Assembly (NCBI GenBank): GCA_030390025.1
Contig: CM059432.1
Coordinates: forward strand, 88,228,001-88,292,000
DNA: 64,000 nt
Source: Squalus acanthias
Lineage: Eukaryota
Reading direction: 5' to 3'
Shown here: positions 28,365-64,000 of the stretch, piece after piece
Layout of the letters: every line of letters begins with the position of its first letter
Numbering within the stretch: the stretch's first letter is position 1
Translations under genes and position numbers: made by a program
Notes under the pieces: generated by a model
What the model saw: the letters and a program-made list of their open reading frames with translations, nothing else
Database searches by the model: none
What the model was told of the DNA's origin: nothing

Positions 28365-28950
28365 ACCTAGAAATTGCTGTAGGCCTAAACCTTTATGGCA
28401 TCAACAAATGTGCAGTAGTGGTCTGCACTGTGGGGAACGAGGTAAACTTCGCACTTTCCAGCTAGTCAGAAATTGTTGTGGAGACGTTGAGGGTTTCAGG
28501 TCCTATTGTGGTTAATCAGTGCATTAGCCTTGTTGTGGTTGTTGCTGGCATAATTACTCATATACAAGGGGCCATCGCCCATATGAAAGGCATTATCACT
28601 GAGTCAGATTCTTGTCTGTCAGAATTCTGAAGGGAAATACTTTCACTGAGTTTATCTGGACAGAAAGTTTACTACAATGGGGAATGCTTTCAGTACTCTC
28701 CTGGCACTTGACTTAGAGGAGGAGGAGCAGCAGCAAAGATCTGTTAGAGATGTCTGTGTGCTATCTGGGCCTATCAGCCATTGCAGATACAGGACCGGCA
28801 CAGATACCTGGCAATAACTGAAGAGCACTACCTCCGGAGACCGTGGCTTAACAGTGAGGCAGTGACAGAGCTGTGCCACCTCCAAAATGAAGACAGAAAG
28901 ACAAGTTCAAACTTCCAGTGTCTGTCCAGGTGACCATGCTCTCAATCTTT
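28365..28950 (+). mobile_element. Harbinger transposase 5' relic with terminus
   Basis: CCTAGAAATT terminus-like sequence; MGNAFSTLLALDLEEEEQQQR..YLAITEEHYLRR..EAVTELCHL from 28677. Confidence 0.6.
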
Positions 28951-30295
28951 GGGCTGAATTTTTACCTTTGAGTCTCGATGGCAGCGGGGGTGGGGGGAAG
29001 GGCTCCGTGGATCGCGCAGGAACCCGGAAGTTGGAGAGGCGCATTTTGCTGTGGCTTTTTAAAGAAGCCACTGCAATTGAATCAGACTTCTGCGTTTCCC
29101 GACCAATTAGCTGCAGCGGGTCCGATGACATCACGGATGACTCTACTTCCGCTAAGCTATTTAAAGGAGCAATGCACAGATGTCACTTGAATTTTGGTGG
29201 AGGAGGAAGCCAGGTTGTGGGACTAGTGAGTTGGTTCTGTTGTAAAAATTTGATAAGGCTCTAACCCGAAACATGCAGGCTCAAAGACATAAAGCAGCCC
29301 CAAGATTTAGTGATGCCTCCTTGGAGATATTAGTCCAAGGAGTCAGGGCCTACAGGGACATCCTCTTCCCTGATGATGGGGGGAAGAGGCCAGCTGGCTA
29401 GACTAAGAATGCATGGCTGGAGATCGCTGAAGAAGTGAGCAGCAGGAGTGTTGTTGGCAGGACCTGGATACAGTGTCAAAAACGCTTTAACGACCTCATG
29501 AAGTCATGAAAGGTGAGTACAATGCCACATTGCCCTACATCCTGATGTGCGTGCCACCCAACCCCCTCACTCTGCCTTTCCAAGCCTACTCCTGCACATC
29601 ACTCCTCACACTAATGTACCTTGCAGATGCACCCATCCCTCACTGTCAATGCACTTACTCACATCCCAATCTGACCATCCACCACTGACACTCACCCTCA
29701 TATTAATGCAGTGTAATGCCTCTCCCTCATAGTTGCTCTCAACAGATGTTGCCCAACCATCCCTTCCATTTATTCCATGAATCTCACTCAAAGGTCTCTC
29801 GTTTCCTTCCTTGCAGGAGAAGAGAGCACAGAACACCCAGGAGAGGCAGCAAACTGGTGGTGGCCCCCCAGTCATGACACCGTTCACTTCATCAGAGGAG
29901 GAGGCACTGGAGCTGAGCCGCGTTGCGGAGCTATTGGTGGTCAGAGATGGAGAGAGGGGGACCTCCCAGCTACCTGGTTACAAAATTAAATATCATATAG
30001 CCACATGGCACACAAATCACTCATGTTGACTTGATGTCAGCAGCCAGTGAAATATGATCATGTGCATAATGGTAACTTAAAACATTCTTATCATAACAGT
30101 TCTAATTCATGTCTTTACTCTCCACAGGCCCATCAAGTGTCCCCCCCACCGTCCAGCCAGAGGAGGAAGACGACTCCTCAGAGGAGGTCACGGACTCTGA
30201 GGGTGCACCATCACACGGTCCATGCACACCAAGCACCAGCACAGATACACACATGTCGGTGGGTCCACTAAGTGAGAAAGTAGTGTTGTCACCTG

Positions 30296-33200
30296 GGGCA
30301 GAATTTTCATTGACCCGTGGAGGCAGGATTGGAGGCGTGTGGGGGATTAAAATTGCGAAAACTGGTGGGCGGGCACAAGCCCGCCTCCATCCCGCCTCCA
30401 CGCAATTTTCATTAAATCGTGTCTGCTGGTCCCGACTCCGTCCCGCCTCCAAGAGGCAGGATAGGCCGTTAAGGCCCTTAACAAGCACTAAATTGCCTCT
30501 ATAATGCCATTTTGAAAGGCCTTTGTGAATTTAACCCTTTTTCCACGTGAAGCACGCCTGTTCTGAACCACGAATGTGAAACCTGGCGGTAGCACATTTG
30601 GATTGCTGACTATCAGCTGCAGCTCAACCATGAAATAGGAGATGTGATCAGCCATCATTTGCAGTTGGCAGGACTTTGTTGTCTGAGGTCTGGGGGATCT
30701 TTTATATGGCATAACCATAGCTGTGGAAGTTTGGAGCCTGACACCCATCTCCAGTGTGACCTCCTAGGAAACCCCTCTCGCCACCTTGACTGAGCACTTC
30801 CTCAACTGAGGCATATACCAGAAGCATGGGAACTATTTATTTCCTTTCCTCCTGAACATCAGATTCAGACGAGGACCAGCCGTGGCAGCAGCAGAACCAT
30901 GAACAACAGCACCACCAGCAGCAGCAGCATCAACAGGAGTGCCAAGCTGCTCCTCACCCACCTGAAGCTGCACAGGCCAGAAGGCGCCAGCGCGCGACCA
31001 CATTGCTGCCCGAGATGCAAGGGACGCACTTGACCAGATTTGCTTAGCCTGCACAATCAAACACTTTTGCCTCGCACCTTCTTATCGGACCATCGACAAT
31101 GTCCAGGAACCTGCGGATTCCTATCACTCTGACCACCATACTGACAATTGCAAGTCATCCTAAGCCCTCAATGTGGAAGTCCCATTTGCGAAATGACAGA
31201 CACCACAACTTCAGCAGTTTGCCAGCAGAATTTTTAATCATACCAAGCAAGTGCTGGCATTTCAAGATTAAACACAACATTACACCCAAGTGACTACCCT
31301 TGTGACTACTTGTGCATTATTTTTCTTTTACGCATGCTCCTACGTGGTGCTTCCCCTGTGGCTTCAGCAGATGTGGAGGCCCCTTGCTCACTTTCTTGCT
31401 GCTCCTGCCTCGACACCTTTGGCAGGCGTCCTCTGGGGTTGCGAGCCTGTGAGGACTCGGCAACAGTCTGCTGCTCCTGCGGCTGTGCAGGGACTGAGAC
31501 GCCCATCTCAGTTGGGTGAGGACTCTGGTGGGGCTCTGACTGAGGGCTTTGCAGTGGCTTGGTCGTGTGAGCGCTTGGAGAGGAGCCCCCACTTCCTTGT
31601 TGTCTGCCACCAACATCCCTCTCATGGGTCAGCCCCACCTCAGCGCTTGCAAGTGGATTGAGAGCACCTTGCTGAACATCAGGGGGGCCATGGGGACCCG
31701 TATCTGCACTGGAAGTCCTACTCAGAAGGACTTCCATGAAGGTCTGGTTTCTGTGTTCAATAGATGACCATCGCTACTCCAGAGATGCCAGTCTATTCTG
31801 AACAATGACCATGTTTTCTACACTCTGGCGACTTATCTCCTCCATAGCCGTAGCCATCCTCTCCTCTACTGTAGCCATCCTTTCCACGGAGGTTGCCATC
31901 CTTTCCGTGGTGATGCATTCATGCGCCAATGACTCCACAAAGGTTCTGCTCATGTTTGCTATGGACTCCTCCATTCGCTCCACACTCGCAGCGACCCTGG
32001 AGACAAAACCTGCCAGAGACTCCTGCATCTGTTCCTGGCGTTCCAGCACCGCTGATCTTATGGATGGACCCAGAGGCAGAGGGTCGACATGCAGCTGAGC
32101 CGAGCTAGGAGAGTCCTGCGCCCTCCGACTAGGACTCTCCACTGCTGTCCCTGTCTCCACTATCTGCTGATGCTCACTTGTGAGCTGTGATACACCAGGT
32201 GACAACACTACTCTATCTCTCGATGTTCCCGCCGAGGTGTGAGTGTCTGCGCTGGTGCTGGGTGTGCTGAATTCTGCTGACGCGGCGCCCTCAGAGGTTG
32301 CAGCTTCCTCTGAGGAGTGGTGAGGCTCATGCTCTTCCTCCTGGACGGTGGGGACGGCTGCTCGCGATGGTCCTGGGGGGGAGTAAAGGAAAGAGTCAGA
32401 GATGTGAGTCCAAGGTTACATGCACATTGCATATTGCAGATGATCATAAGTCAGTCTGCTGGAGCATCAGAATCATTATCAGTGACTCATGCAATGTCAA
32501 TGAGAGAGATGATAAACTATTCTGTCACCAGCTTGCTCTGATGAACCCGTCTGTCCGTCCCCCACTTGCGCATCCTCCTCCACTCGCATGATCTCCAGGA
32601 CCACCTCCTCCCAGGTGGTGAGCTGGGCTACTGAGGGTGGCCCTCCTCCTGTCCTTGCTCTTTCCCTCTTATTGTGAGCTCTCTTTTCCTGCAATGAGGG
32701 AGACAAGTGGAGTTTGAGTGAGAATGAAGGAGTGAGTGTAGAGAATCTATATCATTGATGGTTAGAAGGAGACAAATTTGGAGTGAAGTGGCAAGACCAT
32801 GGGCCCTCCCTGTGTGTTGTAAGTTGTTTTCATAGCATCACAGCGATAGGGAGTGTGAGGGCTGCATAGTCGAATAGTTAGGTGAATGTGACCACACAGA
32901 GAGAGGGAATGGGTAAGGGTGCAGGGATGTCAGTGTCAAGTGGGATGTGGAGGAAGAGGTTGTCAAAGCTGAGTGCTGGTGAGGAGAGGCAATGGGGATC
33001 AGAATGAGGGTGATGGGAAATTCATACTCACTTTTCCAGTGCGCAGCAGGTCATGAAACCTCTTCCTGCACTGAAGCCAGGTTCTGCGGGTTATGGACAA
33101 CGAGTTGACCTCCTCTGCCACCTGGATCCACACAGCCTTGGTTTGATGGGAAGGCTTCTTCCTCCCTGAAGAAGGGAAGAGCACCTCCTTATTAGCTCTG

Positions 33201-33549
33201 GCTCCCTCAATTAAAGCTTGCAGGGCGACGTCATTAAATCGAGGTGCAGACCTAGGTCTCTGGCTGGCCATTCTTCCTGCAGGTGCCTCTAACATGCAAA
33301 GACAGAAGCTTGGCAGTCTGCAGAGGAAGCAAGGCTTGTTGCAGACCTTAAATGCTGCAGCAATGATGACGTCATCGGAAGCGACTTTCAGACTGGAAAA
33401 ACTCACTGGCCGTGGGTTCCCACGCGTTGGAACTCAATTGGCCAATTATGTTAAAATCGCATCAATCTCCCACATCGATTTAGATTCGGGTGGCTAACAC
33501 GAAATGCGATTACATGACCCCAACCCATCCCTGAATCAAAATCCAGCCC
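30296..33549 (-). mobile_element. Harbinger-type element F, complete, Myb-only
   Basis: TIRs GGGCAGAATTTTCATT and AATCAAAATCCAGCCC; short target duplication around CTGG; transposase reduced to about 30826-31050. Confidence 0.9.
31306..33271 (-). pseudogene. Near-intact 3-exon Myb/SANT-like (MSANTD/NAIF1-type) gene, about 488 codons with one TAG (332 aa if terminated there)
   Basis: Exons 33271-33032, 32688-32529 and 32372-31306; all GT-AG and in phase; the only lesion is TAG at 31776-31774; heptad repeat (ERMAT..)x3; basic C-terminus RRSMRKRK. Confidence 0.9.
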
Positions 33550-33625
33550 TGGTGTCTCACACATCACATGTGAGCAAGAGCAGAGGGTGGAGACAGGGAC
33601 AGCAGTGGAGGATCCTCGTCGGAGG

Positions 33626-34020
33626 GCATAATCTAGGCTGACACTTCAGTGCAGTACTGAAGTTATTTACAGGTCTTCCTGAAGCAGATAGCACAACACT
33701 GTCACTGTTGGAGGTGTTGACTTTTGGAGGAGAGATTAAACTGAGGCCCCATCAGGTGGGCATAAAAGAAACCATAGAACTATTCAAGAAGAGCAGGGAG
33801 CTCCTCTGGGTCAAGGCCATCATTTCTCTCTCAACCAACACCACGAAAATCAGATATTGGTCATTCATTTGCTGTTTGTGGAACCTTGCTGTCCAGAAAT
33901 TGGTTGCCATATTTGTCTACATAGCAGTGACTGCACCTCAGAAGTAATTCAGTGATTGCAAAGAGGTTTAGGTTGTCCTGAGAATTTGCTAAGGTTCTAT
34001 ATAAATACAAGTTCCTTTCT
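33626..34020 (+). mobile_element. Deu-domain SINE (SacSINE1-like)
   Basis: ctaggctgacacttcagtgcagtactga..ttaaactgaggcccc; tail tatataaatacaagtt. Confidence 0.75.
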
Positions 34021-34710: not shown

Positions 34711-35779
34711 ACATGATGCGGAGATGCCGGTGTTGGACTGGGGTGGACAAAATTGAGAGGTCGCACAACACCAGGTTATAGTCCAACAGTTTTATTTGAA
34801 ATCACAAGCTTTCGGAGCTATCGATTGCCCCTTCCTCAGGTGAAGTAAATAGATACAGAATCGCCAAAGCATATATAGATAGAGAACAAAGCATGTGTAC
34901 CTTACAATTGCAGACCACTAAATTAAATCATCCTGACTATCTGCCGAGGTGTGATAAAGTTAATCAGGTCAGCCAGGAAGTTACCACATCAAAGACATAG
35001 CAAGATACAACTGAGACAATGAGGTGTAGTCGCAGGGGTTCTAACGTGTCAAAAGCTGCCGTCTGTATGTAAAACGAAAAGCTTTAAAATTTTTACTTTT
35101 TTACTGGGAAAATTTTTACTTTTTTACTGGGAATTACATCTGTGAACAAGCCAACGACGACTCGAGTCCGGATCACGTCATGTATCGTGACATAAACCCA
35201 AGATCCCGGTTGAGACCGTCTTCATGAGTGCGGAACTTGGCTATCAGTTTCTGCTCGATGATTTTGCGTTGTCGTGTGTTTCTAAGGTTGCCTTGGAGAA
35301 CGCTTACCCGCAGATCCGAGGCTGAATGTCCTTGACTGCTGAAGTGTTCCCCGACTGAGAGGTAACAATCCTGCCTGGCGATTGTTGCGTGGTGCTCGTT
35401 CATACGTTGTCTCAGTGTCTGCATGGTCTCGCCGATGTACCATGCCGCGGTGCATTCTTTCCTGCAACGTATGAGGTAGACAACGTTGGCCGAGTCACAT
35501 GAGTATGTACCATGTACCTGGTGGTTAGTGTCCTCACGTGTGATGGTGGTATCTGTGTTGATGATCTGGCATGTCTTGCAGAGTTTGCCGTGGCAGGGTT
35601 GTGTGGTGTCGTGGTCGCTGTTATCCTGAAAGCTGGGTAATTTGCTGCGAACGATGGTACTTCTGAGGTTAGGCGGCTGTTTGAAGGCAAGTAGTGGAGG
35701 CGTGGGAATGGCCTTAGCGAGGTGTTTGTCGTCATCGATGACATGTTGAAGGTAACTTCCTGGCTGACCTGATTAACTT
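34711..35779 (-). mobile_element. Penelope-like element, 5'-truncated, intact GIY-YIG C-terminus
   Basis: Open frame 35750-35173: CHGKLCKTC..NVVYLIRC..WYIGETMQTLRQRMNEH..GLN; 29-bp inverted copy (35751-35779 versus 34957-34985). Confidence 0.93.
34803..34842 (-). ncRNA. Minimal type I hammerhead ribozyme motif in a Penelope pLTR
   Basis: cac-CTGAGGA-a-ggggc(aatcgata)gctcc-GAAAG-CTT-gtg; palindromic AAGCTT helix III. Confidence 0.75.
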
Positions 35780-37673
35780 AAGCCAGGGATCCCATATGCC
35801 TTTTTAATAGCCATCTCAACTTGTCCTGCCACCTTCAAAGATTTGTGCACATACACCCCCAGGTCTCTCTGTTCCTGCACCCCCTTTAAAGTTGTACCAT
35901 TTACTTTATATTGCCTCTCCTCATTTTTCTTACCAAAGTGAATCAATTCACACTTCTCTGCATTATGCTTCATCTGCCACGTGTCTGCCCATTTCACCAG
36001 TCTATCTCTGTCCTCCTGAAGTCTGTTACTATTCGCTTCACTGTTTACTACATTTCCAAGTTTTAAGTCATCTGCAAACTTCAAAATCTTGCCCTGTGTA
36101 CCCAAGTCCAGGTCATTAATATATATCAAAAAGAAAATGAGTCCTAATAACAACTCCTGGGGGACACCACTGCACACTTCCCTCTAGTCTGAAAAACAAT
36201 CGTTCACCACTACTCTCTGCTTTCTGCCCCACAGATGATTTTGTATCCATGTAGCCACTGCCCCTTTTAATCCCATGGGCTTCAATTTTACTAACAAACA
36301 CCTTTTGAAAATCCATATACGCAACATCAACCGCACTACTTTCATCAACTGTCTCCGTTACTTCATCAATTTAGTCAAACACGATTTGCCTTTAACAAAT
36401 TAGTGCTGGCTGTCATTTATTAACCCATATTTTTCCAAGTTTTTGTCCCAGATTATTGTCTCCTCACCACTACTCTCAAGCTGACTGGCCTGTAGTTGCC
36501 GGGTTTATCCTTCTCCCCTTTTTTGAACAGTGCTGTAACATTTGCGATCCTCCAGTCCTATGGCACTACTCCCATATCGAAGGAGAATTGGAAGATTGTG
36601 GCCAGAGCCTCCGCAATTTCCATCCTTGCTTCCCTCAGCAAACTAAGATGCATCTCATCCGGACCAGCTTTCTTTCCTACTTTGAGCGCTGCCAGCCTTA
36701 TAAGTGCCTCCCCTTTATCTATATTTATCCTATCCAATTTCTCTGCCACCTCATACTTTTCTGTGACAGATACAAAGTACTCATTTAGTCCCTCAGCCAT
36801 GCCCTCTGCCTCCACAAGAAGACCTCCTTTTTGCTCCCTAATCTGCCCCACCCTTCCTTTGACTTCACTTTTACTATTTATATGTTTAAAAAAGCCTTTT
36901 GGGTTCTCTTTTATGTTACCTGCTAATCCATTCTTGTATGCTCTCTTTGCTCCTCCACTGTATAATAAAGCCCTTGAGGCATCCACAGACAGAACTTGAG
37001 CATTCATTCAACAAGGTCTATGCAACCACCAGGATCATCAGTGAGTATGGCATTGACATCTTAAAGCAGGGATGCGGTATGTTTCAGATTTGGTGTTGTC
37101 ATGAGAGACACCAGCCTCATCATGCTTAGCCTAGGTATGCCTTGGCTGCTGGCATTCCCTCATCAAGTCCACTGACCTGTGTGATTTGAACGGTGCACAG
37201 CAATGAGGTCTGTGAGGTCTCAATCTGATCACCCAGCATATTGAAGTCAGACAAGAGTGCTTCATTGACCCTCTGTAGCAGAAGTCTGAGTATTCCTGAG
37301 AGATACTTCCATTGTGTTTAGGAATTACGCAACTGATGACTGGTGCAGATGCCCCATGGTATAATGCTGGGCAGACAATAGTTTTCTGTGATTACATAGA
37401 TCCAGCTAGTGGATTTCAAACTCCTTACAAGACCCTGCAGGGTACTTTGCACGGACACAAGTGGCCAGTGTTGATGATTCAGCTCAGACAGCAGTCTCCT
37501 TTTATAAGCGAACCCTATGAGGTTAGAATCCTTAATTGCTACAGAAGAGGTAGAAAACTTTCCAACCCTCACCCCCCCCCCCCCCCCCCCCCCGCCCCCA
37601 GCTCCCCCACCCCAAGCAACAGGCACCCGCTCTTCAGCTTCAACCATCGCTGTCTGCTCCTCAGATACTGTCA

Positions 37674-37864
37674 GGGAATAATTTTAACCTAACCCGCCCA
37701 TTGGGAAACTGATGGGATCGGGTGGAATGCCGGTTTTACACCCTGCCCAATATTACCACCCATTGTTTTCAATAGAGATTTCAAAAATCAGGTGGGGTGT
37801 AAAACCGATGTTGCATCCGATCCCGTCAGTTTCCCAATGAGTGGGTTCAGTTAAAATCGCCTCC
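37674..37864. mobile_element. Fully palindromic MITE
   Basis: About 67-bp imperfect inverted arms (attttaacc..ttttacaccc and its reverse complement). Confidence 0.85.
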
Positions 37865-39919: not shown

Positions 39920-42900
39920 GGGCTAAAAACTCGATTAGGCACAAAAACCGACGCGGGGATCGCGATGCATGATCGGCCCGTGCTCATTCAAAGTAATGCA
40001 GGCAGCACGCGACCTTCGTGCTGTCTGCTAATTACCATGATTGCTGCGTTCAGCCCAGTGCTGAGCACGCTGCTGACTGGCTGAGCGCTCAACAGGGGGC
40101 CAAAGAGGTGCGAGGCGAGCTCTATTTAAAGCTAGCCTCCACTTCTTAAAGACAGTCTGCACCTCTTAAAGGTGAAGTGCTTTCTGCATTCAGCAGCTGC
40201 TGGAACTGCTTGTGAAGGCCACTGTGATGAATTAATGTATCAACAGGGCAGAGAAAGGGCACCAAGGTTCTGGGACGTTCTAGAGGCCTTAGTGCAGAGG
40301 GTCGAAAGAAGAAGACAGATTCTCTACCCATAGGGGTCCAGGAGGCCCTCTAGACACACAGTGAGAAGGCAGTAGGAGCAGATACCCGAAGCTGTCAATG
40401 CCAGCTGTCTTGCCCCTAGGACCTGGATCCAGTGTCGAAAGAAGTTCAATGACCTCATACGAGTGGTCAAGGTCAGCGAATGCATCTTCAAAAGCCGTCT
40501 CCCACCAACTGCACCACTAGCCTCACACACTGCTCAATGCACCTCACCCCCATCACTCACCTACCAACAATCTCTATCAATCCCAACTCATACCTCACAT
40601 TCATAGCTTCACCTCACCCTCACACACTTACCACTGCTGCAAGACTCACACCCACATCTCACACCTTGCACACACTGCCAGCTATTCAACAATGACAGGC
40701 ACATCACTCAAACACACTGTACTCACTGACACACTCCCTCTCTCTGCAGGGCAAGGTGGCTCATAACCGCAGGCAGCAGCAGCTAACTGGCGGGGGATGG
40801 GCAAGCCTGCATATCGTTACCCAGCTGGAAGAGACAGTGCTCAACATTATTGGAAGGGCCGTCACGGAGGCCATTGCGAGCAGCGAGGGAAAAACCATTG
40901 AAGATGATGGTATGCTTAAACCTAATCCTCCTTCTCACATCCCACTTCCCCCTCATCCCACAAGCTGCTGATGGTGTAAGCATGCACATCTTGCTTCCCT
41001 CATCCCCTCACCACAACCCTAACCTTGTGACATTCTCCTTTCAGACACCCAAGAGATCCAACCTGGTCAGCCATTGAAGGAAGAGCAAGAGGAGAGTGAT
41101 GGAGAAGAAGAGACACTATCACTCGCTCTCACACTCGCAGGCGCCAGCTCAGATACTGGCGCTGCGCGGTCTTTAGAGGGTAGTATAGAGGCGGGATCTG
41201 TACATGGTGCGTCACCGGGCAAGAGTGGCCTGCAGCCAGGGCAGGAGGAAAGGGTATCGCAGGTGCCAGCTCCCTGGAGGGCCAGGTCGCACACGCGTTC
41301 TGCTGCCGAGAACACATATGAGGACTTCGATGGGACGGCCTACAGAAGAAGGCTGATGGGTATGCACAAAGAAATGCTTGGTGCATTGGCAGGCCTGGCA
41401 GAGAGCCTGTTGTCACTGTCAAGGAGCATGGAGGAGTCCGGCACCAAATTTGCACAGGGCTTTGCGCAGAGCTTGGAGCCCATCCTTTCCAGCATGGATG
41501 TGATGGGCATCTCCATTCGTGCATTTGTGGACCCAACCATGATGCAGTGTCTGATGGCCGATGTCTTATTGCAGCACAAGTGGAAGCAACCCAACGTCTA
41601 AGTGCTGCAGTGGAAGCTCAGACTGTTCTCATGCAGGCTCAGCTTGCTGCCATGTAAGCTCAGACTGCTGCCATCGTGGCTGGGTTTACCAGTGTTGAAA
41701 GGGGCTTGCAGTGTCTCGCAGCAGTCCAGCAATCTGCACTCCAACAGATGGTTAGGATTGGTGAGATGCCGCCCCGGTGGAGTGGCAGTGGCTCCGTGGA
41801 GCACGAACCTACTGTCCTCTATCAGGATGACAACATTCCTGCTCCCACCCCTGCCACTCCACCAGTGCCCTTGCTGCTGCCTGTCAGCCAGTCAGCCCAG
41901 ACTGCTGCAGCCCTTGCCGAGGTGGAGCAGTCCACAGCTGGGCCTTCTAGGCCCAGAGCTGCTCGAGGTCATCCTGCAAGGCCATCTGCAGTGTCCCCCA
42001 TGGAAAGTCAGCAGCCTTCCACCAGCCATGCTGCAGTCACTGGGGTAGCACTTCGTAGGAGCACTAGGACAGGCAAAGGCACACGGAAGACAGGCACTAA
42101 GGGAATGCACAAGGGTGATTAGTTGACTTTGTTATGTAATATTGGATTGATTAATTTATAAATTTGGTTTGGAATGTTTGTTTTGTGGTGGCTTTCATTT
42201 CAGCATTGTGACCAAGAGGATGCTGTGATGTTCCGTGACAGAGGGATGGTAAGGTGGGGAAGTGTTGAGCAACTGGGATCTTGGGTTTCATTCAGGGGAA
42301 CTGGGGTCTGATGATGTGCTCACGGACAGCCCATCCGGAATGTGGATGTGCAGGCTGCATCCTCCTTTCCTCCTCCTCCTCATCTTCCTCTTCCTCTTTC
42401 TCCTCCTCCTCCTCCCTCTGCGAGCAGCTTGTCTTCTTTGCTGCCTCTGCTCCATCTCCCTGTCATGCTGCAACGCAAGGGGGACTGCAACTAGAGTGCC
42501 CATGACGGGGAGCAAGTGGTGTACTCAGTGACCTTCCATTAGTAGCCAACACCTTCCCAACGTCCAGCAGTACTCCCTGGACACTTTTAACAATTTTTGA
42601 AATCTCTTACAGCAACCCTGTTCTCCTACGAACTCTGGAAGAGCCAGTACAAAAGCAATAAGCAACTTACCTGCAAGTTGGATGTATCCCTTTAAGTAGC
42701 GCTGGTGGGGGCTCCCTCGTGCAGCTGAATGCACGTTCAGCTGTGCATGTTTAGGAGAGAGTGTTAAATGGAGCTGCGACATCGAAAATGGCAGGTCGTG
42801 CGTCAAATCAGCGTCACACATTGACTGACGTCACGATCTGCCTATTCTGCATACTGCCGGCGCACACACGTACCGTCCACACTATCACCCTCACCAAAGT

Positions 42901-43159: not shown

Positions 43160-43735
43160 CCTGTGGACGCTCCATGTCTGAAGGGGAGCCTTTAGCGTCA
43201 TGTGCATTCTGTCAGTCACTCCCAGCACTCTTGGGAAGCCAGCAATGCTGTAGAAGGTTTGTGCCCTCAGCCTTTGCTCCATCGCAGATATTGCAAATTT
43301 AATAAACTACCCAGCCCTAGGGAACAGGGCATCAGTCACCTGCTGAATGCAGGCCCTCACTGCCCCTTGACTAGTCCGGCACAGGTCCCATTGGATGTCT
43401 GGAATGGTCTAGACCTGTAGAAGTTGAGGGCAGGAGCACCTTCATTTCCACAGGTAAGGCTCTGATACATGTAGACCTTGACTTTAAATCACCATTAGCA
43501 AGTCGCACAGTTAGCTGATGGAATGCTTTGTAAATCACAGCCATTGTTCCTCAGACATCTCCTGGAATCTCAGTTGATGCCTGTATACTGTCTGGGTCAG
43601 GTACTTGTGAATGGGCTGCCATCTCCACTTGTGGGGCTTCACTTTTCTCCTCCTGTCTCTGGTTCTTTTCCTCCTGTTCCTCCTTCTCAATAATAATATA
43701 AAGCAGGGGTTGAGCTAAATGGCTGTCCAGAGTTA
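43160..43735 (-). pseudogene. HARBI1-like transposase N-terminal half relic
   Basis: LPVEMKVLLALNFY..FQ and FYSIAGFPRVLGVTDRMHMTLKAP. Confidence 0.75.
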
Positions 43736-44810
43736 CAAAGGACGATAATACCTTCAGTGCCTCCTGGGTCAGCTGATTTGAGTCTACTTCAGGTAATTAC
43801 AGGTGCCTGTGCGCCTGACAATCTGATTGCAATTTGTAGAGACCCTCCAAACATTCACAATTTGAAATTTGGGGTCGAGGCCAGTTTTATGGGTGGAAGG
43901 GGCGATAGACGGATGAAAAAGATCAAGGAGATTTGGGCGTATTATAATTACGTGTGTAAGTCACTTACTCCCAAAATTCCTTGATCTTTTAGGCTGCGTA
44001 ATTGATTAGCGCCCCAGTTATGCGTATCTCCGGGTGCAAATATGTAGGACATTCGAGGCTACAACATAATTACAAAGTGCAGCAGTGACATGTAGTGGCA
44101 GAAAGTAGGTTCTGCAATTTTTTTCTTCAATTTCATTATTCTACCAAAACTCTAAGATGATCTACTAAAATCATCCTTTTCTTTCACAAATAACAATTGA
44201 TCTTCAAAGGTCATGGTGGAGCAATAGCAGGAATAAAGGTGGTGTTAATATTGGAGTTAGCTATGGTCGAAGGTGTGCTGATGGTAGCTTTTGTAGTTAG
44301 GACAGTACTTGAAACAGTGCTATTGTAAAATGTTGCATTACAGTAGTTAGGTTTACAAAACCTTGATGTTTGACCACGGATTACAAAGAGTGATTAACAC
44401 TTGGAATGGTGGCAAAAATCTTAAATTCATTCAAGTTACAATTAGGCAGTGTAGATGAAAGCATAAAATTATAAAGGGATATTGATAGATTAAGTGAATG
44501 GATTTCAATGTAGGCAAATGTAAGTTCATCCACTTTGGACCTAAAAAGGATAGAACAGGGTACCTCCTAAATGGCGAAAAGCTAAAAACAGTGGAGGTCC
44601 AAAGAGACTTGGGGGTCCAGGTACAAAGATCATTAAAATGTTATGAACAGGTACAGAAAATAATCAAAAAGGCTAATGGAATGCTGACCTTTATATCTAG
44701 AGGACTAGGGTACAAGGGGGTAGAAGTTATGCTGCAGCTGTACAAAGCCCTAGTTGGACCACACCTGGAGTACTGTGAGCAGTTCTGGGCACCACACCTA
44801 GGAAGGATAC

Positions 44811-47520
44811 CTTATAGTTATGCCCCCTTGTAACAGCTACCTCCACCCGAGGAAATAGTCTCTGAACATCCACTCTATCTATCCCCCTCATCATCTTATA
44901 AACCTCTATTAAGTCGCCTCTCATCCTCCTCCGCTCTAAAGAGAAAAGCCCTAACTCCCTCAATCTTTCCTCATAAGACCTCCCCCCCAAACCAGGCAGC
45001 ATCCTGGTAAATCTCCTTTGCACTCTTTCCAATGTTTCCATGTCCTTCCTATAGTGAGGTGACCAGAACTGCACACAATATTCCAAATGTGGTCTCACCA
45101 AGGTCCTGTACAGTTGTAGCATAACCTCACGGTTCTTAAACTCAAACCCCTTAATAAACGCTAACACACTATAGGCCTTCTTTACTGCTCTATCCACTTG
45201 AGTGGCAACCTTCAGAGATCTGTGGATATGAACCCCCAGATCCCTCAGTTCCTCCACGTTCCTCAGAACCCTGCCGTTGACCCTGTAATCCTTATTCAAG
45301 TTTGCCCTACCAAAATGAATCACCTCGCACTTATCAGGGTTAAATTCCATCTGCCATTTTTCGGCCCAGCTCTGCATCCTATCAATGTCTCTTTGCAGCT
45401 TACAACAGCCCTCCACCTCATCCACTACTCCACCAATCTTGGTTTCATCAGCAAATTTACTGATCCACCCTTCAGTCCCCTCCTCCAAGTCATTGATAAA
45501 AATCACAAACAGCAGAGGACCCAGCACTGACCCCTGTGGCACACCGCTGGCAACTGGTCTCCAGTCCGAAAATTTTCCATCCACCACCACCCTCTGCCTT
45601 CTATGAGATAGCCAGTTACTTATCCAATCGGCCAAATTTCCCTCTATCCCACAACTCCTTACTTTCTTCATGAGCCGACCATGGGGAACCTTATCAAACG
45701 CCTTACTAAAATCCATGTATACGACATCAACTGCTCTACCTTCATCTACACACTTAGTTACCTCCTCAAAGAATTCAATCAAATTTGTTAGGCAAGACCT
45801 ACCCTTCACGAATCCGTGTTGACTATCCCTGATTAAGTTGCCTCTTTCCAAATGGTCATAAATCCTATCCCTCAGGACCTTTTCCATTATCTTACCAACC
45901 ACCGAAGTGAGACTAACCGGCCTATAATTACCAGGGTCATTCCTATTTCCTTTCTTGAAGAGAGGAACAACATTCGCCACTCTCCAGTCCTCTGGCACCA
46001 TCCCCGTGGACAGTGAGGACCCAAAGATCAAAGCCAAAGGCTCTGCAATCTCCTCCCTTGCCTCCCAAAGAATCCTAGGATATATCCCATCTGGCCCAGG
46101 GGACTTATCGACCCTCAGGTTCTTCAAAATTGCTAAAACATCTTCCGTCAGAACATCTACCTTCTCCAGCCTATCCACCTTTATCACACTCTCATCCTCA
46201 AAAACATGGCCCCTCTCCTCGGTGAACACTGACGAAAAGTATTCATTCATCACCTCTCCTATCTCTTCTGACTCCATGCACAAGTTCCCACTACTGTCCT
46301 TGACCGGCCCTACCCTCACCCTGGTCATTCTTTTATTTCTCACATAAGAGTAAAAAGCCTTGGGGTTTTTCTTGATCCGACCCGCCAAGGACTTCTCATG
46401 CCCCCTCCTAGCTCTCCTAAGCTCTTTTTTTAGCTCATTCCTTGCTACCTTGTACCCCTCAATCGACCCAACTGAACCTTGTTTTCTCATCCTTACATAT
46501 GCTTCCTTTTTCCTCTTGACTAGACATTCAACCTCTTTTGTGAACCATGGTTCTCTCACTCGGCCATTTCCTCCCTGCCTGACAGGGACATACCTATCAA
46601 GGACACGCAGTAATTGCTCCATGAAAAAGCTCCACTTTTCGTTTGTGCCTTTCCCTGATAGTTTCTGTTCCCATCTTATGCTCCCTAATTCTTGCCTAAT
46701 CGCATCATAATTACCCCTCCTCCAATTATAAACCCTGCCCTGCCGTATGGCCCTATCCCTCTCCATTGCAATAGTGAAAGTCACCGAATTGTGGTCGCTA
46801 TCTCCAAAGTGCTCTCCCATATACAAATCAAACACTTGGCCCGGTTCATTACCCAGTACCAAATCCAATGTGGCCCCACCTCTTGTTGGCCTATCCACAT
46901 ATTGTGTCAGGAAACCCTCCTGCACACACTGTGCAAAAACTATCCCATCTGAACTGTTTGACCTATAAAGGTTCCAATCAATATTTGGAAAGTTGAAGTC
47001 ACCCATGACAACTACTCTGTGACCTCCACACCTATTCATAATCTGCTTTGCAATTTCTTCCTCCACATCTCTATTACTATTTGGGGGCCTGTAGAAAACT
47101 CCTAACAACGTGACCGCTCCTTTCCTATTTCTAACTTCAGCCCATATTACCTCAGACGGCAGATCCCCCTCGAACTGCCTTTCTGCCGCTGTTAAACTAT
47201 CCTTGATTAACAATGCTACTCCTCCACCTTTCTTACCACCTTCCCTACTCTTACTGAAACATCGATACCCCGGAACTTCCAACAACCATTCCTGTCCCTG
47301 TTCTAACCATGTCTCCGTAATGGCCACCACATCGTAGTCCCAAGTATCAATCCACGCTCCAAGTTCTCCTACCTTATTCCGGATGCTCCTTGCATTAAAG
47401 TAGACACACTTCAAGCCACCTTCCTGTCTGCCGGTACATTCCTGCGACCTTGATACCCTCCTCAGTACCTCCCTACACTCACCACTGGCTCCTGGACTAC
47501 AGCCCTTTTTCACATCCCGC
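44811..47520 (-). CDS. CR1 ORF2: AP endonuclease plus reverse transcriptase (C-terminally truncated, FADD changed to FADE)
   Basis: YFNARSI, ITETWL, GDFNFP, SDH; NYRPVSL, DFSKAFD, GVPQGSVLGP, KFADETK; true start uncertain. Confidence 0.9.
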
Positions 47521-47527
47521 TGACAAA

Positions 47528-47923
47528 TTAGTTTAAAACCCCCCGAAGAGCCGTAGCAAATTTCCCTCCCAGGATATTGGTGCCCCTCTGGTTCAGGTGC
47601 AAACCATCCTGTTTGTACAGGTCCCACCTTCCCCAGAATGCGCTCCAATTATCCACATAACTGAAACCCTCCCCCCTACACCATCCCTGCAGCCACGTGT
47701 TTATCTGCACTCTCTCCCTGTTCCTCAACTCGCTGGCACGTGGCACCGGCAACAAACCAGAAATTACAACATGGCTTATACTGGCTCTCAGCTTCCAACC
47801 TAGCTCCCTAAATTCCTGTTTTAAATCCCCGTCCCTTCTCCTACCTATGTCGTTGGTACCGACGTGTACCACGACTTGTGATTGTTCCCCCTCCCCCTTG
47901 AGGATTCTGAAAACACGGTCCGA
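47528..47923 (-). CDS. CR1 ORF1 SGNH/GDSL esterase domain (partial)
   Basis: VHVGTND..DGLHLN motifs. Confidence 0.88.
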   Translation of the reverse strand, partial: SDRVFRILKGEGEQSQVVVHVGTNDIGRRRDGDLKQEFRELGWKLRASISHVVISGLLPVPRASELRNRERVQINTWLQGWCRGEGFSYVDNWSAFWGRWDLYKQDGLHLNQRGTNILGGKFATALRGVLN

Positions 47924-48934: not shown

Positions 48935-49800
48935 AGTTACCGAGCTGTGCCATCTGCTTCAAGAAGACTAATAGCCAGACTCCACCAGGACTTCTGACTC
49001 TTTTGAGGCTATCGGAGGGGTCAACTGCATTATTCGCCAATTTGCTGTTCACTGCTGTATCAAACATGATGCGGAGATGCCGGTGTTGGACTGGGGTGGA
49101 CTGCATCAAACAGGCGACTGATGCATAGTTTAGCTTTCCAACTGAGGAACAACAGCAACATAGCAGGAGTGCCCAATATCACCACATTGCAGGGTTTACT
49201 AAAGTGCACTCAATTATAATCATTGACGGCATTTATTTAGCCAGCAGGGCCCTGTGGCACAATATTAGCACCTGCAGGAACAGAAAAGTGTTTATTACTG
49301 CATAAATGTGCATCCGGTCATTCACCACCAACAACATGTCATGCACGTAATGCCTGCTTGCCAAAGAGCAGTCATAATGCTTTCATCTTAATATAACCAT
49401 CTGTGCTAGGCTTATTTGAAGGTGATGGCAGACTGGTAGGATGGCCTTAGGAGACCAAGACTACCCTCTTCAGTGCTGGTTAATGGTAGCCACAGAAAGA
49501 AGCACAGCGCAGATACAATCGAGCCAAGGATCATTATAGACTATACCACTGGCACCTTAAAACTGTGCTTCAGTTGACTTGACAGATCAGGGTGTCTTCC
49601 TGTACTGCCATTCCAGAGGCTCCAAGATCATCGTTGTTTTCTGCATGCTCCACAGCTTTCAATATGTAGAGGCCTAACCACGGAGGAGGCCAATCTGCAA
49701 ATAAAGCCACATCAGGATACATATTCAGACCGAGAGGATGTCACTGCATAAGCACCAATACAGTCAGGAAGATATCTGCACCAGGTGCTCATCCAAGAAA
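48935..49800 (+). pseudogene. HARBI1-like transposase relic (DDE region)
   Basis: ELCHLLQ..HCCIKQATDA..IAGFTKV..IDG..RNRK..GDQDYPLQCWLM..RRYNRA..LDRSG..KIIVVFCMLH. Confidence 0.78.
49067..49100 (-). mobile_element. 34-bp Penelope terminus with a 12-bp target duplication
   Basis: Identical to the terminus of the element at 34711; flanked by CTGTATCAAACA and CTGCATCAAACA. Confidence 0.85.
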
Positions 49801-49857: not shown

Positions 49858-51644
49858 GGGGGGGTATTTTTCAGGGGGTCAGCGGGCACATTTGGTGGCG
49901 GGTCAGCTGGCAAAATTTATTTTTTGACAATGGCTAGGGAACCCACTGTCAAGCCGCCTCCACGCTAGTTTCCCAGATGTCAGGTCTGTTATCGCTGAAT
50001 AGGCCTGACAGCAAGCGGCGGGGAAGCAATTTAGATCATTAGATAGATTGTTAAGAGGCAATTATATAGTATTTTAAGCTTACCTTTAGATTTTTAGAGT
50101 TCGCCAACGGCTTCCCCGCTGTTTGGGGATCACGTCAGGTAAGGAGGTCGGGTGTTGTGTCAGCATGGGATGATTTCTTTACTTGACAGCTGCAAATGGT
50201 CTATTAAAGTTTCCATTTCAAAGGTGTTCACTTTCCAAGGTTAGAAGCTGTTGCTTACTGCATTTGGAAGACAGATTGAGCTTTATGCAGCTTGCAAGTG
50301 TTTGGACCTAACTCTCTATCCAGTGTCACCTCATTGGAACATCCTCTCTCACCATTGACAGATCGCTTCTGTCATCTCAACCTCACTTGCCATCTATTCC
50401 ATCAGCATCGGTGCCCTTGAAAAAATCTCACCTTGCTCCTCTGAATCCCAACATGATCAGCCCCAACACCAGCAGCACCAGGCACACCAGCAGCACCAAC
50501 AACAACACCAACATTCTCCACAATCAGCTGGTGCTGCACAGGACACAGGGCATCAGCACCCAACCACATTGCTGCCCGGGACGCCAAGGATGGCTTCACC
50601 ATGGCCAGATTTACTTCACCTGATGCTGTACACCCTGGCTGCCACATGACGTGCAGGTTGGCACCACCGCACAGCAACACCATAAAGCATCCCTACAATG
50701 TCCAAGCCATTCCTTTCACACTTATTGCCATTGTGGGGGGGGGGTACCGTTATGTCTCACCATTCACTGTAACTCACTAAGCCACTTCCAAAGGTGCACA
50801 CAAATCTGTCCAAGAAAGCAAAGTGTTGAAAATAAAGATTTCAATGTTTGACAGCACATTAACAGAAACTTCACATGAAGATTGGCTAAAACACCCAAGT
50901 GCCTACCCTTGTGTCTTGTTAGTTGGTATGATTGGACTAGGATGAGGGTGAGTGTCAGGGGTGGCTAGTGAGATGGGGAAGTGATAATATAGATAGAGAG
51001 GGATGGGCGGAGGTGTAAGGTAAGTTGGTGTGAGTAAGGATGTGCAGGAGTAAGGTATGGAAGGCAGAGTGATGGGGATGTGATGAGTGGCACAGCAGGA
51101 TGAGGTTGAATGTGGTTTTGCAGGAATGTTTTGTGATCTACTGAGATCATTGAAAGGTTTGCACCACTGCGGTCCTCCTAATGACATCCCTGCTTGTGTC
51201 CTCCTGTGCAATGTGCAACTAGGCTGTGTTGATCTTCTGGGGAGGTCTCTTCTGCCCATGGGAAGGGAAGAGAACCTCCCTGCGTGCTGTGACTCCCTCC
51301 ATAAGCATATGGAGGGAGTCATGGGAGAGCCTGGGTACAGCCGTGCACCTCTGTGCAGTGCTTGTTAGTGTTTGCAGCACCTCAATGCTGTAGAACACTG
51401 ACAGCACAACTGTCAAAAAATCTATTTGCGCATGGTCCCTTTAAGGAAACCGGCTGATGACGCGTCATCAAATGACATCATCAGACCCGCTTCCTTCAAT
51501 TGGCCGGGAAATGTGCTGGGCGGGCTTAACAAGCGCAATCAACATAAAATCTTTTCACAGAGCAGGATGGAGCCAGCAGTGGAGTCACACTCCGCCGCTG
51601 ACCCCAGCTGTCTCGGACCTGCCTCCGTAGGCGAAATTGCGGCC
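49858..51644 (-). mobile_element. Harbinger-type element H (Myb exon 1 relic on -, transposase stub on +)
   Basis: AVPRLSHDSLHMLMEGVTARREVLFP..FNDLSRS at 51350-51135; stub ccacattgctgccc shared with element F; end GAAATTGCGGCC. Confidence 0.78.
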
Positions 51645-52083
51645 TACATCCAAGTACCTTTTACAACACTTCCTTTTGCAATTACTCAACTAACATTAAT
51701 ACCCATCCTTTGTTGTGCTGCTACTTTATTCTGCACAATCAGAAAGAAACCCTCTGCATAAAGATCAAATGCAGTGCAACCAATTTATTCACCTACTTTG
51801 TATCATGTGTCAGTGAGACTAATTTCTTATCCCATAGTTCTTTCCCTTAGTGCTGGTGTATTATGTGTGACTTCTAACTCCAAACCTGTGACTTTTCTAA
51901 GTGATTCACCAATGGAAGGAGTAAGTGTGCGTGCTGGCTGGCTGGTGGGTTTCAGTGAAAACCACTTGGGATTCTGTTGGCCCTATAACTCCTTGTGCTG
52001 GTTCCTGCGCTGCTACTGTAATAAAAACAGAAAATGCTGGAAATACTCAGCAGGTCAGGCAGCATCTGTGGAGAGAGAAACAG

Positions 52084-53123: not shown

Positions 53124-54484
53124 ATAATAAATAAAATAAATGGGAAAAAAAAGAATAGGGGCAGAGGTTATGGCCTGAAATTGTTGAACTCTATGTTGAG
53201 TCCAGAAGGCTGTAAAGTGCCTAATCGAAAGATGAGGTGCTGTTCCTCGAGCTTACATTGAGCTTCATTGGAACAGTGTAAGAGGCCGAGGACGGTGAGG
53301 TCTGAGTGGGAGTGGAGCAGAGAATTAAAGTGACAGGCGACCGGAAGCTCGGGGTCACCCTTACGGACTGAATGGAGGTGTTCCGCAAAGCGGTCACCCA
53401 ATCTGCATTTGGGCTCCCCAATGTAGAGGAGACCGCATCGTGAGCGGAGAATACAGTATACTAAATTGCAAGAAGTACAAGTAAATTGCTGTTTCACCTG
53501 GAAGGAGTGTTTGGGGCCCTGGACAGTGGGAAGGGTGGAGGTAAAAGGGCATGTGTTGCATCTCCTGCGCTTGCACGGGAAGGTGCCGGGCGAAAGGGAA
53601 GGGGTGTTGGGGGTGCTAGAGGAGTGGACCAGGGTGTCACAGAGGGAGTGGTCCCTTTAGAATGCTAAAAGGGGAGGTGAGGGGAAGATGTGATTGGTGG
53701 TGGGATCACGCTGGAGGTGGCGGAAATGGCGGAGGATGATCCGTTGAATATGGAGGCTGGTGGGGTGAAAGGTGAGGACAAGGGGAACCCTATCGTGGTT
53801 CCGGGAGGGAGGGGAAGGGGTGAGAGCAGAATTGCGGGAAATTGAATGGACACGGTCAAGGGCCGTGTCAACCACAGTAGAGGGGAATCCTCGGTTGAGG
53901 AAAAAGGAAGACATGTCGGAAGCACTGGTATGGAAGGTGGCATCGTCAGAGCAGATGCGGCGGAGACGGAGAAACTGGGAGAATGGAATAGAGTCCTTAC
54001 AGTGAGAGGAAGTGTAGTCCAGGTAGCTGTGGGAGTCAGTGGGCTTATAGTGAATGTTTGTCAATAGCCTATCCCCAGAGATGGAGACAGAGAAGTCGAG
54101 GAAGGGAAGGGAAGAGTCGGAGATGGACCATGTGAAGGTGAGGGAAGGGTGGAAATTGGAAGCAAAGTGAATGAAATTTTCTAGTTCAGGTCGAGAGCAG
54201 GAAACGGCACCGATACAGTCATCATGCGCTGCTACTGTGGCTCGCTGTCTACCTGCTTTCCCCAGCATGCCTATTGTCACTTATGCAGAGGTCAGATGTG
54301 GCATCAGCTTGAGAGACAGTTCCTTGATGAAGAGTTAAGATAAAGGGCTTAGGATTCATCTGGCGTCCTGGATGAATATTCTTGTCAGGGTATTAATCCC
54401 AGTGTTTGTACAATATATAAAATCATCTTAGTAAGGCTATTAAAAAATCAGGAAAATAGCTAAATAAGATTGGGAAATTTCATG

Positions 54485-59646: not shown

Positions 59647-60337
59647 TTAAGATTTATATTTGTTATTGTTATTCTCGATCACTGAGGATGTGTTCCCCGT
59701 GCTGAGGCTTGCTAGATGGGAGCACAGGTCGGAGACAAGGTTACAAGATTGTAGCACCAATTCTCCAACGTGCGCTCCTGCCTCATGAAGTTTACAGGTG
59801 CTTGTGCAGCCTCAGTGAATTGACCCTTGTATTTGAATATATAAAACCTGTTTATAATAATTATGTAAGCAGGGTCCTTTTTGGGGTCGAGGTAGCTTCA
59901 AGCTGATACAACTGCTGATGGAAGTTCTGAATCAAGTTAGGCATCTTGATTACAGTCTCGTGATACCTGAGACAGGCAGGTCCACAGTACTCCAGTGTAC
60001 TTTTGATGATTGACCAGCCAGGCTAACACACTGAACCTGAAGATGTAGACTTATCACTGTAGGCTAGCTTCCTTCCCACTCAGCTCCAGATAATCCTGCT
60101 GATCAATGCTCCTGAACAAGCAGCTGGAAGCTTATCAGTGATCTGTGCTGATGAGCTATGCAGTTTTAGCTGGTTAAGCTCCAGTAATACTCTTGTGCAT
60201 ACTTCCGGTCTCTAAGCTTTGACTCTGGCAATCTGTGCCTGAGGCCTCTGGACTTTGGTCAGTGGGGCTTGTCCCTACAGGGAGCGAGTTTGGGGTTTAT
60301 GAGATTTTGAGATTTTTATTCCATTCTGGGCAAACAG

Positions 60338-60511
60338 AAGGTAATTTTGACTTTTGGCAATAGTGTAAAAGGGGTGATATCGAATCAACCGTCCAGTATA
60401 CATCCCTCCCGATTTTCATTTTCAGTGAATGGAAATCGGAAGAGATGTATAGCGGGTGGCTTATCCGATATTGTCCATTTTACAATATCGGCCAAAATCA
60501 AAATTACCCCC
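60338..60511. mobile_element. Fully palindromic MITE
   Basis: ggtaattttga..tcaaaattacc with about 75-bp imperfect arms. Confidence 0.82.
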
Positions 60512-63209: not shown

Positions 63210-64000
63210 TATGAGGAGAAAGATGAGGAGGACATGGAGGTGGACAGGATGTTAACGAGGGGAGTGCGGCATCTTAGAAGGTGTCAACATCTGACCCATT
63301 GATACTCCCTCCACAGGATACACTGACCTCAGAGGTCACACCTTAACTTTTCCCAGCGGCAGTGTGTTGGAAAGCTGTGCTTCCCCCTTGGAGGCTACTG
63401 GGCAGCTATGACAGCTGCCGGCTGCAAACTTGCAGCCCACGTCACCAAGGAGCACAGCCTTGTCAGTGACTGTTAAAGTGACCACAGAGCTGAATGTCAA
63501 TGTCTCTCAGTCCTTCTCGGCAATCTCTGGTGACCTTAGCCAGATCAATCAATCCTCTGTGCAGCGCTGTATTAAGAAGGTCACAGATGTAGGGGTATCA
63601 ATTTATCACCTTCACTATTGATCCTGCCAAGCAAGGAGAGCAAGCCGTCAACTTTAGTAGACTATAAATAATCCTGCAGGTACAGGGTGTTGTTGAGGGT
63701 ACTCATGTAGCATTGAAGACACTGTAAGAGAGCCCTCAGTTTTATCAACAAGCAGGGATTTCATTCTACTAAGCTAGCCTACGATGCCAATCACATGATT
63801 TTGTATGTGAATGTGTGTGACGCAGAAAGCTGCCCTGATTCATTTGTACTTTGGAAATCAACAATACCTGCATTGTTGAGCCATCACACTGTGTGGGGTT
63901 GGTTGATTAAGGATATCTTCTGCAGGCCTGGCTGACGACATTTCTTTGACAGCAGACAATATGCTTCTCACCATCACTAGGAGTCAGCTCCGAGTGCCTG
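63210..64000 (+). pseudogene. HARBI1-like transposase relic
   Basis: LQPTSPRSTALSVTVKVTT..SGDLSQINQSSVQRCIKKVTD..QVQGVVEGTHVALK..FINKQGFHS. Confidence 0.8.

Follow-up and report, generated by a model that had tools for sequence, protein, structure and literature searches.

Does the nearly intact, spliced Myb/SANT gene on the reverse strand of a 64,000-nucleotide stretch of the Squalus acanthias genome (hereafter the window) represent a host gene in the making, or is it carried by a transposon copy that is simply young? The initial annotation had described three exons with canonical GT-AG splice sites, a combined length of about 488 codons and one TAG, and this gene model was borne out by our analysis:

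33032–33271, minus strand: exon 1 (240 nt), encoding the Myb domain (Pfam PF13873, E 1.6e-9)
32689–33031, minus strand: intron 1, GT..AG, phase 0, at a position common to the paralog in element A (see below) and ungapped in the alignment with the Heptranchias perlo protein P0011
32529–32688, minus strand: exon 2 (160 nt), covered by the P0011 alignment
32373–32528, minus strand: intron 2, GT..AG, phase 1, placed by its splice sites, the element A paralog and the P0011 alignment
31306–32372, minus strand: exon 3 (1067 nt), with an acidic/Ser-rich linker, a long helix, an AT-hook-like PRGRLPK (31437–31417) and a basic C-terminus
31774–31776, minus strand: premature TAG, codon 333, which is GAG in other family copies

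When joined, the exons comprise 1467 nt, corresponding to 488 codons plus a stop, with the TAG (31776–31774) as the single internal stop codon; the truncated form would have 332 amino acids, and the frame continues for 155 codons beyond the TAG to RRSMRKRKIMHK and the terminal stop. In its coding frame, exon 3 contains only these two stops, whereas the two alternative frames contain 11 and 18, and its open frame is thus beyond chance. The intron positions are shared by this gene and the paralog at 29273–30295, despite the fact that the synonymous sites of the two are saturated.

The Pfam search for Myb_DNA-bind_5 that the initial annotation had proposed was positive for exon 1 (38 bits; cut-off 21.7), and the ESM Atlas likewise placed exon 1 with Myb_DNA-bind_5 clusters at values of 0.90–0.91. 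A phmmer search with exon 1 recovered 53 proteins, and all 10 that were looked up by name originate from sharks and rays. No match to exon 1 was found in the PDB, and no longer protein came up when exon 1 was used in a word-index protein search; the same type of search with exon 3 recovered two partial Heptranchias proteins, while the ESM Atlas gave weak, low-recognition leads only for this exon. Pfam matches to DASH_Dad4, POM121 and TPR_TmcB stayed under the cut-off and were discarded as composition effects.

P0011 (XP_067827223.1; 465 amino acids), the best match over the full length and automatically annotated as 'myb-related transcription factor, partner of profilin-like', aligns to the product of the dogfish gene with 40% identity over residues 1–484 (E 4.7e-84). 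The alignment has no gap at either splice junction and extends beyond the TAG, and the domain order is common to both proteins through to the basic C-terminus. Unlike the dogfish copy, the frame of the Heptranchias gene is open and its PRGRPPK motif, which we take to be an AT-hook core, is intact; the corresponding PRGRLPK of the dogfish copy is probably a second lesion, a decayed AT-hook. The 108-residue segment preceding the TAG contains ERMATxx heptads and was modeled, in a single-sequence structure prediction, as one 96-residue helix (mean pLDDT 93), a prediction that fits a coiled coil. Both Myb_DNA-bind_5 and the predicted helix, a putative coiled coil, precede the TAG and would be kept in the truncated 332-residue form. 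The TAG is the sole frame-breaking lesion but not, as had been thought, the only one: nine more of the listed sites change an amino acid in comparison with other copies, and the PRGRLPK motif departs from PRGRPPK.

Two clusters (at 90%) among the Myb/SANT proteins, P0009 (Hypanus, Mobula and Hemitrygon) and P0021 (Rhincodon and Stegostoma), look like a domesticated shark-and-ray gene. The protein studied here is only 31–33% identical to either cluster and is therefore not their orthologue.

The surroundings of the gene were assessed with the help of assembled sequencing runs. Twenty of the 24 runs listed share part of 31200–33350, under eight organism codes (one row carries no code). Four of them were aligned, X3 and X6 (DNA) and X16 and X17 (guessed to be RNA); their species may differ from that of the window, the best word share being 0.69. 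Five of the runs were guessed to be RNA, and none is on record as such. Together with the sequence of the window, these runs delimit the element that carries the gene and the older element into which it is inserted:

30296–33549: element B, 3,254 bp, very probably a non-autonomous Harbinger-type DNA transposon carrying the Myb gene (inverted repeats, empty-site joint, step in depth)
30296–30311, plus strand: left terminal inverted repeat (TIR), starting with GGGC, 13 of 16 bases as in the right end
33534–33549, minus strand: right TIR, starting with GGGC, 13 of 16 bases as in the left end
30292–30296, plus strand: left copy of the target repeat, CCTGG, overlapping the ends, placed by sequence and by the five bases shared at the empty-site joint
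28951–30295, plus strand: element A, the older host of B, with its TIR at 28951, exons at 29273–29512 and 29817–29976 and exon 3 from 30129, and with stops and a frameshift
33550–33627, plus strand: exon 3 of element A continuing after B (GVSHITCEQEQRVETGTAVEDPRRRA), by sequence, and then cut by another repeat
32190–32204, minus strand: target-like motif with a CACCTGGTG core in exon 3 of B itself, 10 of 15 letters as in AAACACCWGGTCTTT

Element B sits in reverse orientation inside exon 3 of the paralogous Myb gene of element A, whose ATG is located at 29273; this exon halts at ...VVLSPG (30295) and picks up at 33550 as (G)VSHITCEQEQRVETG. A joint that bypasses the insertion (30291 to 33548, five shared bases) was present in three contigs of X3 and six of X6; this empty form is real sequence, with the contigs probably stemming from other copies of the A family. 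Loose contig ends with varied flanks accumulate before 30296, and the summed depth in X3 climbs from 22,740 to 587,273 between the bin before 30236 and the one after it. Upstream of element A, the 5' relic of another HARBI1-like transposase (28678–28950) is cut by the A TIR at 28951, from which a triple nest follows, with B in A and A in a third element.

Within the PIF/Harbinger superfamily, elements usually duplicate 3 bp of their target. The exact duplication outside the symmetric TIRs of B is the 2-bp TG (30294–30295 and 33550–33551); the target appears to be centred on CTG, and a CTG duplication would fit only with one C lost from a run. The remaining GGGC-type ends of the window (28951, 20051 and 7690) have no CWG in front of them. 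Vertebrate Harbinger elements favour a 15-bp target (PMC9392472, PMC2836001), given as AAACACCWGGTCTTT for the zebrafish element Harbinger3_DR in the available text of PMC3016246. The empty site of B, with its CACCTGGTG core, agrees with this target in 10 of 15 letters, a level of agreement that 218 of the 127,972 15-mers of the window also reach. The motif at 32190–32204 in exon 3 of B is homologous to the very site in element A that received B.

If B is a Harbinger derivative, what became of its transposase? No Pfam match to DDE_Tnp_4 was found in the three plus-strand frames of 30296–31308, and tblastn searches with the shark HARBI1-like proteins P0004 and P0005 gave no significant match to this 1 kb of B on either strand; matches to HARBI1-like proteins in the protein search came from Pristiophorus. 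Two short segments were nevertheless recognized:

30826–30993, plus strand: likely transposase N-terminal relic with an ATG, a Ser/Asp-rich and then Gln-rich stretch, RRRQR and one stop, by motif-level resemblance and extension through loose contig ends
30994–31047, plus strand: likely transposase C-terminal relic, HIAARDARDAL..TRFA followed by a stop, resembling the RAARQRLIAHRFQ end of P0005

Related contigs depart from B at exactly position 30993 (23 in X3, 39 in X6) and continue in frame as MEARRRRRYP, an extension similar to RRALNRRPYLPRV, which lies close to the P0004 start. We infer that the 30993/30994 junction marks an internal deletion of nearly the whole transposase. An open reading frame for a DDE transposase, as an autonomous Harbinger would possess, is absent from the element, and since the transposase core is missing, B is not self-active. 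Joints in related contigs that skip 30659–33339, 31607–33117, 30987–31641 and 30817–31151 suggest that the B family includes several forms shortened by deletion. Elsewhere in the window, DDE_Tnp_4 was detected in one of 18 frames scanned, a relic beside a Myb gene at about 1–2900 (E 1.3e-10). There, the Myb gene lies tail-to-tail with a transposase relic that lacks residues 22–242 of P0004; this gap reads as an internal deletion different from that of B. A further paralog at 40280–42415 is 75% identical to the 1–2900 element.

The number of contigs that match 28900–33900 at an identity of at least 85% is very large (34,930 in X3 and 94,687 in X6), and the summed depth in X3 over the bins of element B, which is not a copy number, lies between 58,233 and 854,371, as opposed to 14–56 for the single contigs listed. 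These contig numbers and the varied flanks before 30296 characterize B as a member of a dispersed multi-copy family, in which we infer thousands of copies. At position 31776 nearly all of the family reads C, which gives GAG (Glu): 120,559 of 121,639 in depth in X3 and 378,072 of 380,384 in X6. With about 99% of the family DNA depth reading GAG, the TAG is particular to the B copy or to a small subset. The same C was found in the runs guessed to be RNA (554.6 of 554.6 in X17; 272.2 of 272.2 in X16), and since all their contigs over the TAG site read GAG, they derive from other copies. Contigs of these two runs cover the exons and introns of B alike, and one of them (X17 record 15, 32227–32613) crosses intron 2 unspliced. 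The splice joints 33032/32688 and 32529/32372 were not among the 15 of 342 joints listed, although contigs of this kind cannot prove their absence.

The differences between B and its family were also analyzed. Thirteen coding sites are found among the 40 difference rows listed (1,145 more are unlisted), and 10 of the 13 are non-synonymous, compared with a neutral expectation of 72%; this test is small and draws on the best-supported rows, and at four of its sites (32028, 32161, 32319, 32347) the family itself is mixed. Seen in this way, the coding differences of the B copy look neutral. Word shares of 0.69 to 0.5 correspond to a divergence of about 1.2–2.2%, a lower bound, at which one would roughly expect 0.7–1.2 stops and, under an assumed indel rate, a probability of about 0.1–0.3 that no frameshift occurs. 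Thus, one stop and no frameshift are ordinary in a large young family.

Taken together, these data make us highly confident that B is a young, dead, Myb-only copy of a transposase-less Harbinger (NuwaI-like) element nested in exon 3 of an older paralog. Its internal deletion at 30993/30994 would have removed the transposase core, and B would have been moved by transposase supplied in trans, landing in exon 3 of element A thanks to a Harbinger3_DR-like target in the homologous stretch of its Myb exon 3. A copy-specific nonsense change after the insertion would then have left a copy that is likely dead, and the near-intact reading frame would be explained by the youth of this copy, whose divergence from its family is about 1% or more. 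The initial annotation had offered a recently active element, a possibly expressed copy or a domestication candidate, on the grounds that NAIF1/MSANTD genes arose from such reading frames. A Harbinger-type Myb/SANT frame of the kind from which those genes came, and a young copy, were indeed found; self-activity does not hold up without the transposase core, and domestication has to be given up in view of the two inverted repeats that are still in place, the very high-copy family and the absence of the TAG from about 99% of the family depth. Many dispersed copies of a young dead transposon, the outcome named beforehand as speaking against domestication, are largely what the contig numbers reveal.

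Could the B copy nevertheless have become, or be becoming, a host gene of the MSANTD/NAIF1 type with a 332-residue Myb-plus-helix product? Its canonical splice sites, the Myb domain and long helix ahead of the TAG, and the existence of the domesticated-looking relatives P0009 and P0021 in sharks and rays would be in keeping with this notion. By the exon-junction rule, a stop codon in the last exon would not trigger decay, and the TAG lies in the last exon. We consider such a fate very improbable. A domesticated gene would be present as a single copy outside a mobile element and keep an open frame under purifying selection, and B does neither: it has kept both of its TIRs and its insertion junction, its family is very large, its coding differences look neutral, and with its low identity to the conserved P0009 and P0021 clusters it is not their orthologue. 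The X16 and X17 contigs over 31776, which come from other copies, and the unspliced record also count against the idea. On balance, B is likely a dead transposon copy, young and ordinary, rather than a new host gene.

The TAG itself invites a different thought, as it differs by a single base from the GAG of the family, and contigs in X16 and X17 (records 7, 8 and 16) match exon 1 and the region upstream of it at 98–99% identity: it might stem from a sequencing error or be an allele that segregates at low frequency, in which case B would be an intact Myb donor of a Myb-only lineage that is still active. At least nine further amino acid differences and the probably decayed AT-hook fit a true nonsense change instead, and about one stop is expected at the divergence of B, so that we rate this explanation as improbable. 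That B is not a Harbinger at all, and is instead a TIR transposon of a different kind or a mosaic arisen by chance, with a captured Myb gene, we find hardly credible. The lack of a DDE domain and the 2-bp exact duplication could be quoted in its favour; however, TIRs that start with GGG, a target centred on CWG and a Myb/SANT reading frame agree with the available description of NuwaI and Harbinger elements (PMC4482050), and in paralogous elements of the window the same Myb gene lies tail-to-tail with relics of a HARBI1-like transposase.

Comparison with known systems places the young, transposase-less copy that we favour in context. In Harbinger elements, the TIRs are bound by the Myb-like protein, through which the transposase reaches the nucleus, and both proteins are required (Sinzelle et al. 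2008, as cited in PMC9392472 and PMC2836001). With Harbinger3_DR, B shares a Myb-like second gene and a target in which the CACCWGGT core is intact; it differs in its missing transposase core and the stop in its Myb gene, the likeness being one of gene content and target. NuwaI elements of the PHIS superfamily are portrayed as having TIRs of at least 12 bp starting with GGG, a CWG in the middle of the target and a Myb/SANT reading frame (PMC4482050); B resembles them in its GGG-starting TIRs, its CTG-centred target and its Myb/SANT frame, and departs from them in the TG duplication, unless one C was lost, and in the lack of a transposase by which it could be placed in a tree. No cartilaginous fish appears among the NuwaI hosts in the available portion of that report (PMC4482050).

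Harbinger-1M_cIno of Caenorhabditis inopinata, in the account accessible to us, has kept a Myb/MADF gene, lost its DDE transposase, been amplified in dependence on a transposase acting in trans, and been pseudogenised in some copies (PMC13668399). Element B is also a TIR-bounded Harbinger derivative with a Myb gene and no DDE transposase, but its host is a shark, its best family is Myb_DNA-bind_5 and not MADF_DNA_bdg, its target is CWG-centred and not TTA, it has far more related sequence, and the B copy gives no sign of present mobility. NAIF1 and MSANTD1-4 are described in the text at hand as fixed genes that occupy one syntenic position across jawed vertebrates (PMC9392472); B has in common with them a Myb/SANT domain of Harbinger origin and three exons, and is, in contrast, one copy, with a stop of its own, of an element that is bounded by TIRs and present in very many copies. 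No description of the shark family of B was found in the literature searched; it may well be catalogued in Repbase or Dfam.

A paralog at 49859–51660 raises the question of how old the loss of the transposase might be. It has about 60% nucleotide identity to B, and in exon 1 the two differ by a dS of 1.29 and a dN of 0.53 over 61 codons (dN/dS about 0.4). Its junction between the N- and C-terminal parts of the transposase (at about 50559) is the same as that of B within a few bases, and a second deletion between short repeats has removed its Myb exons 2 and 3. These features could be read as an ancient shark lineage of Myb-only Harbingers, founded by one old transposase deletion, with a Myb gene long under selection, a borrowed transposase, and copies nesting in each other's target-bearing exon 3. 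If the deletion were single and old, the Myb frame of the B lineage would have stayed open for much longer than neutral decay allows, and selection would have to have acted on the Myb gene. Each element would supply its own end-binding adaptor while borrowing the transposase, and as exon 3 of the Myb gene encodes the family target motif, copies would nest in and knock out helper genes. For B and A, pS amounts to 0.79–0.80 and pN to 0.30–0.32; dN/dS is not computable, since the synonymous sites are saturated, and the pattern would show selection in the transposon lineages and not in the B copy. Against a single old deletion stand transposase-bearing relatives whose sequence immediately ahead of the junction agrees with B at 85% or more, the many different deletion forms in the B family, and the second deletion in the paralog itself. 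Recurrent deletion or mosaic exchange could have produced the shared junction as well, and we regard the ancient lineage as an unlikely, though serious, possibility. If true, it would be a long-lived vertebrate case in which the two proteins of a transposon are distributed over separate elements, with a built-in self-targeting site.

On its own, the B copy, read as a young dead transposon, matters little: it exemplifies the kind of transposon reading frame that is mislabelled 'NAIF1-like' or 'MSANTD-like' in gene annotation. A 2022 survey reports, in its available text, no Harbingers in the elephant shark and urges checks of other cartilaginous fish (PMC9179366), and B adds one case of Harbinger abundance in a shark genome. 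Myb/MADF-only Harbingers as such have already been published (PMC13668399).

The remainder of the window is rich in related and unrelated repeats. At least seven Myb exon-1 relics lie within the 64 kb (at 1, 6475, 21822, 29273, 33271, 40259 and 51356), and transposase relics occur near 36962, at 43588–43184, 48936–49773 and 63258–63914. Short hairpin elements at 37674–37864 and 60337–60511 carry GG(G)..AATTTT ends and resemble MITEs. Frames at 35173–35772 and 53168–54280 contain GIY-YIG-like and reverse-transcriptase-like motifs and are presumably Penelope-type retroelement relics. An open frame of 973 codons (44727–47648) with endonuclease and reverse-transcriptase-like motifs is, we assume, the ORF2 of a CR1/L2-type LINE, a young retrotransposon copy.
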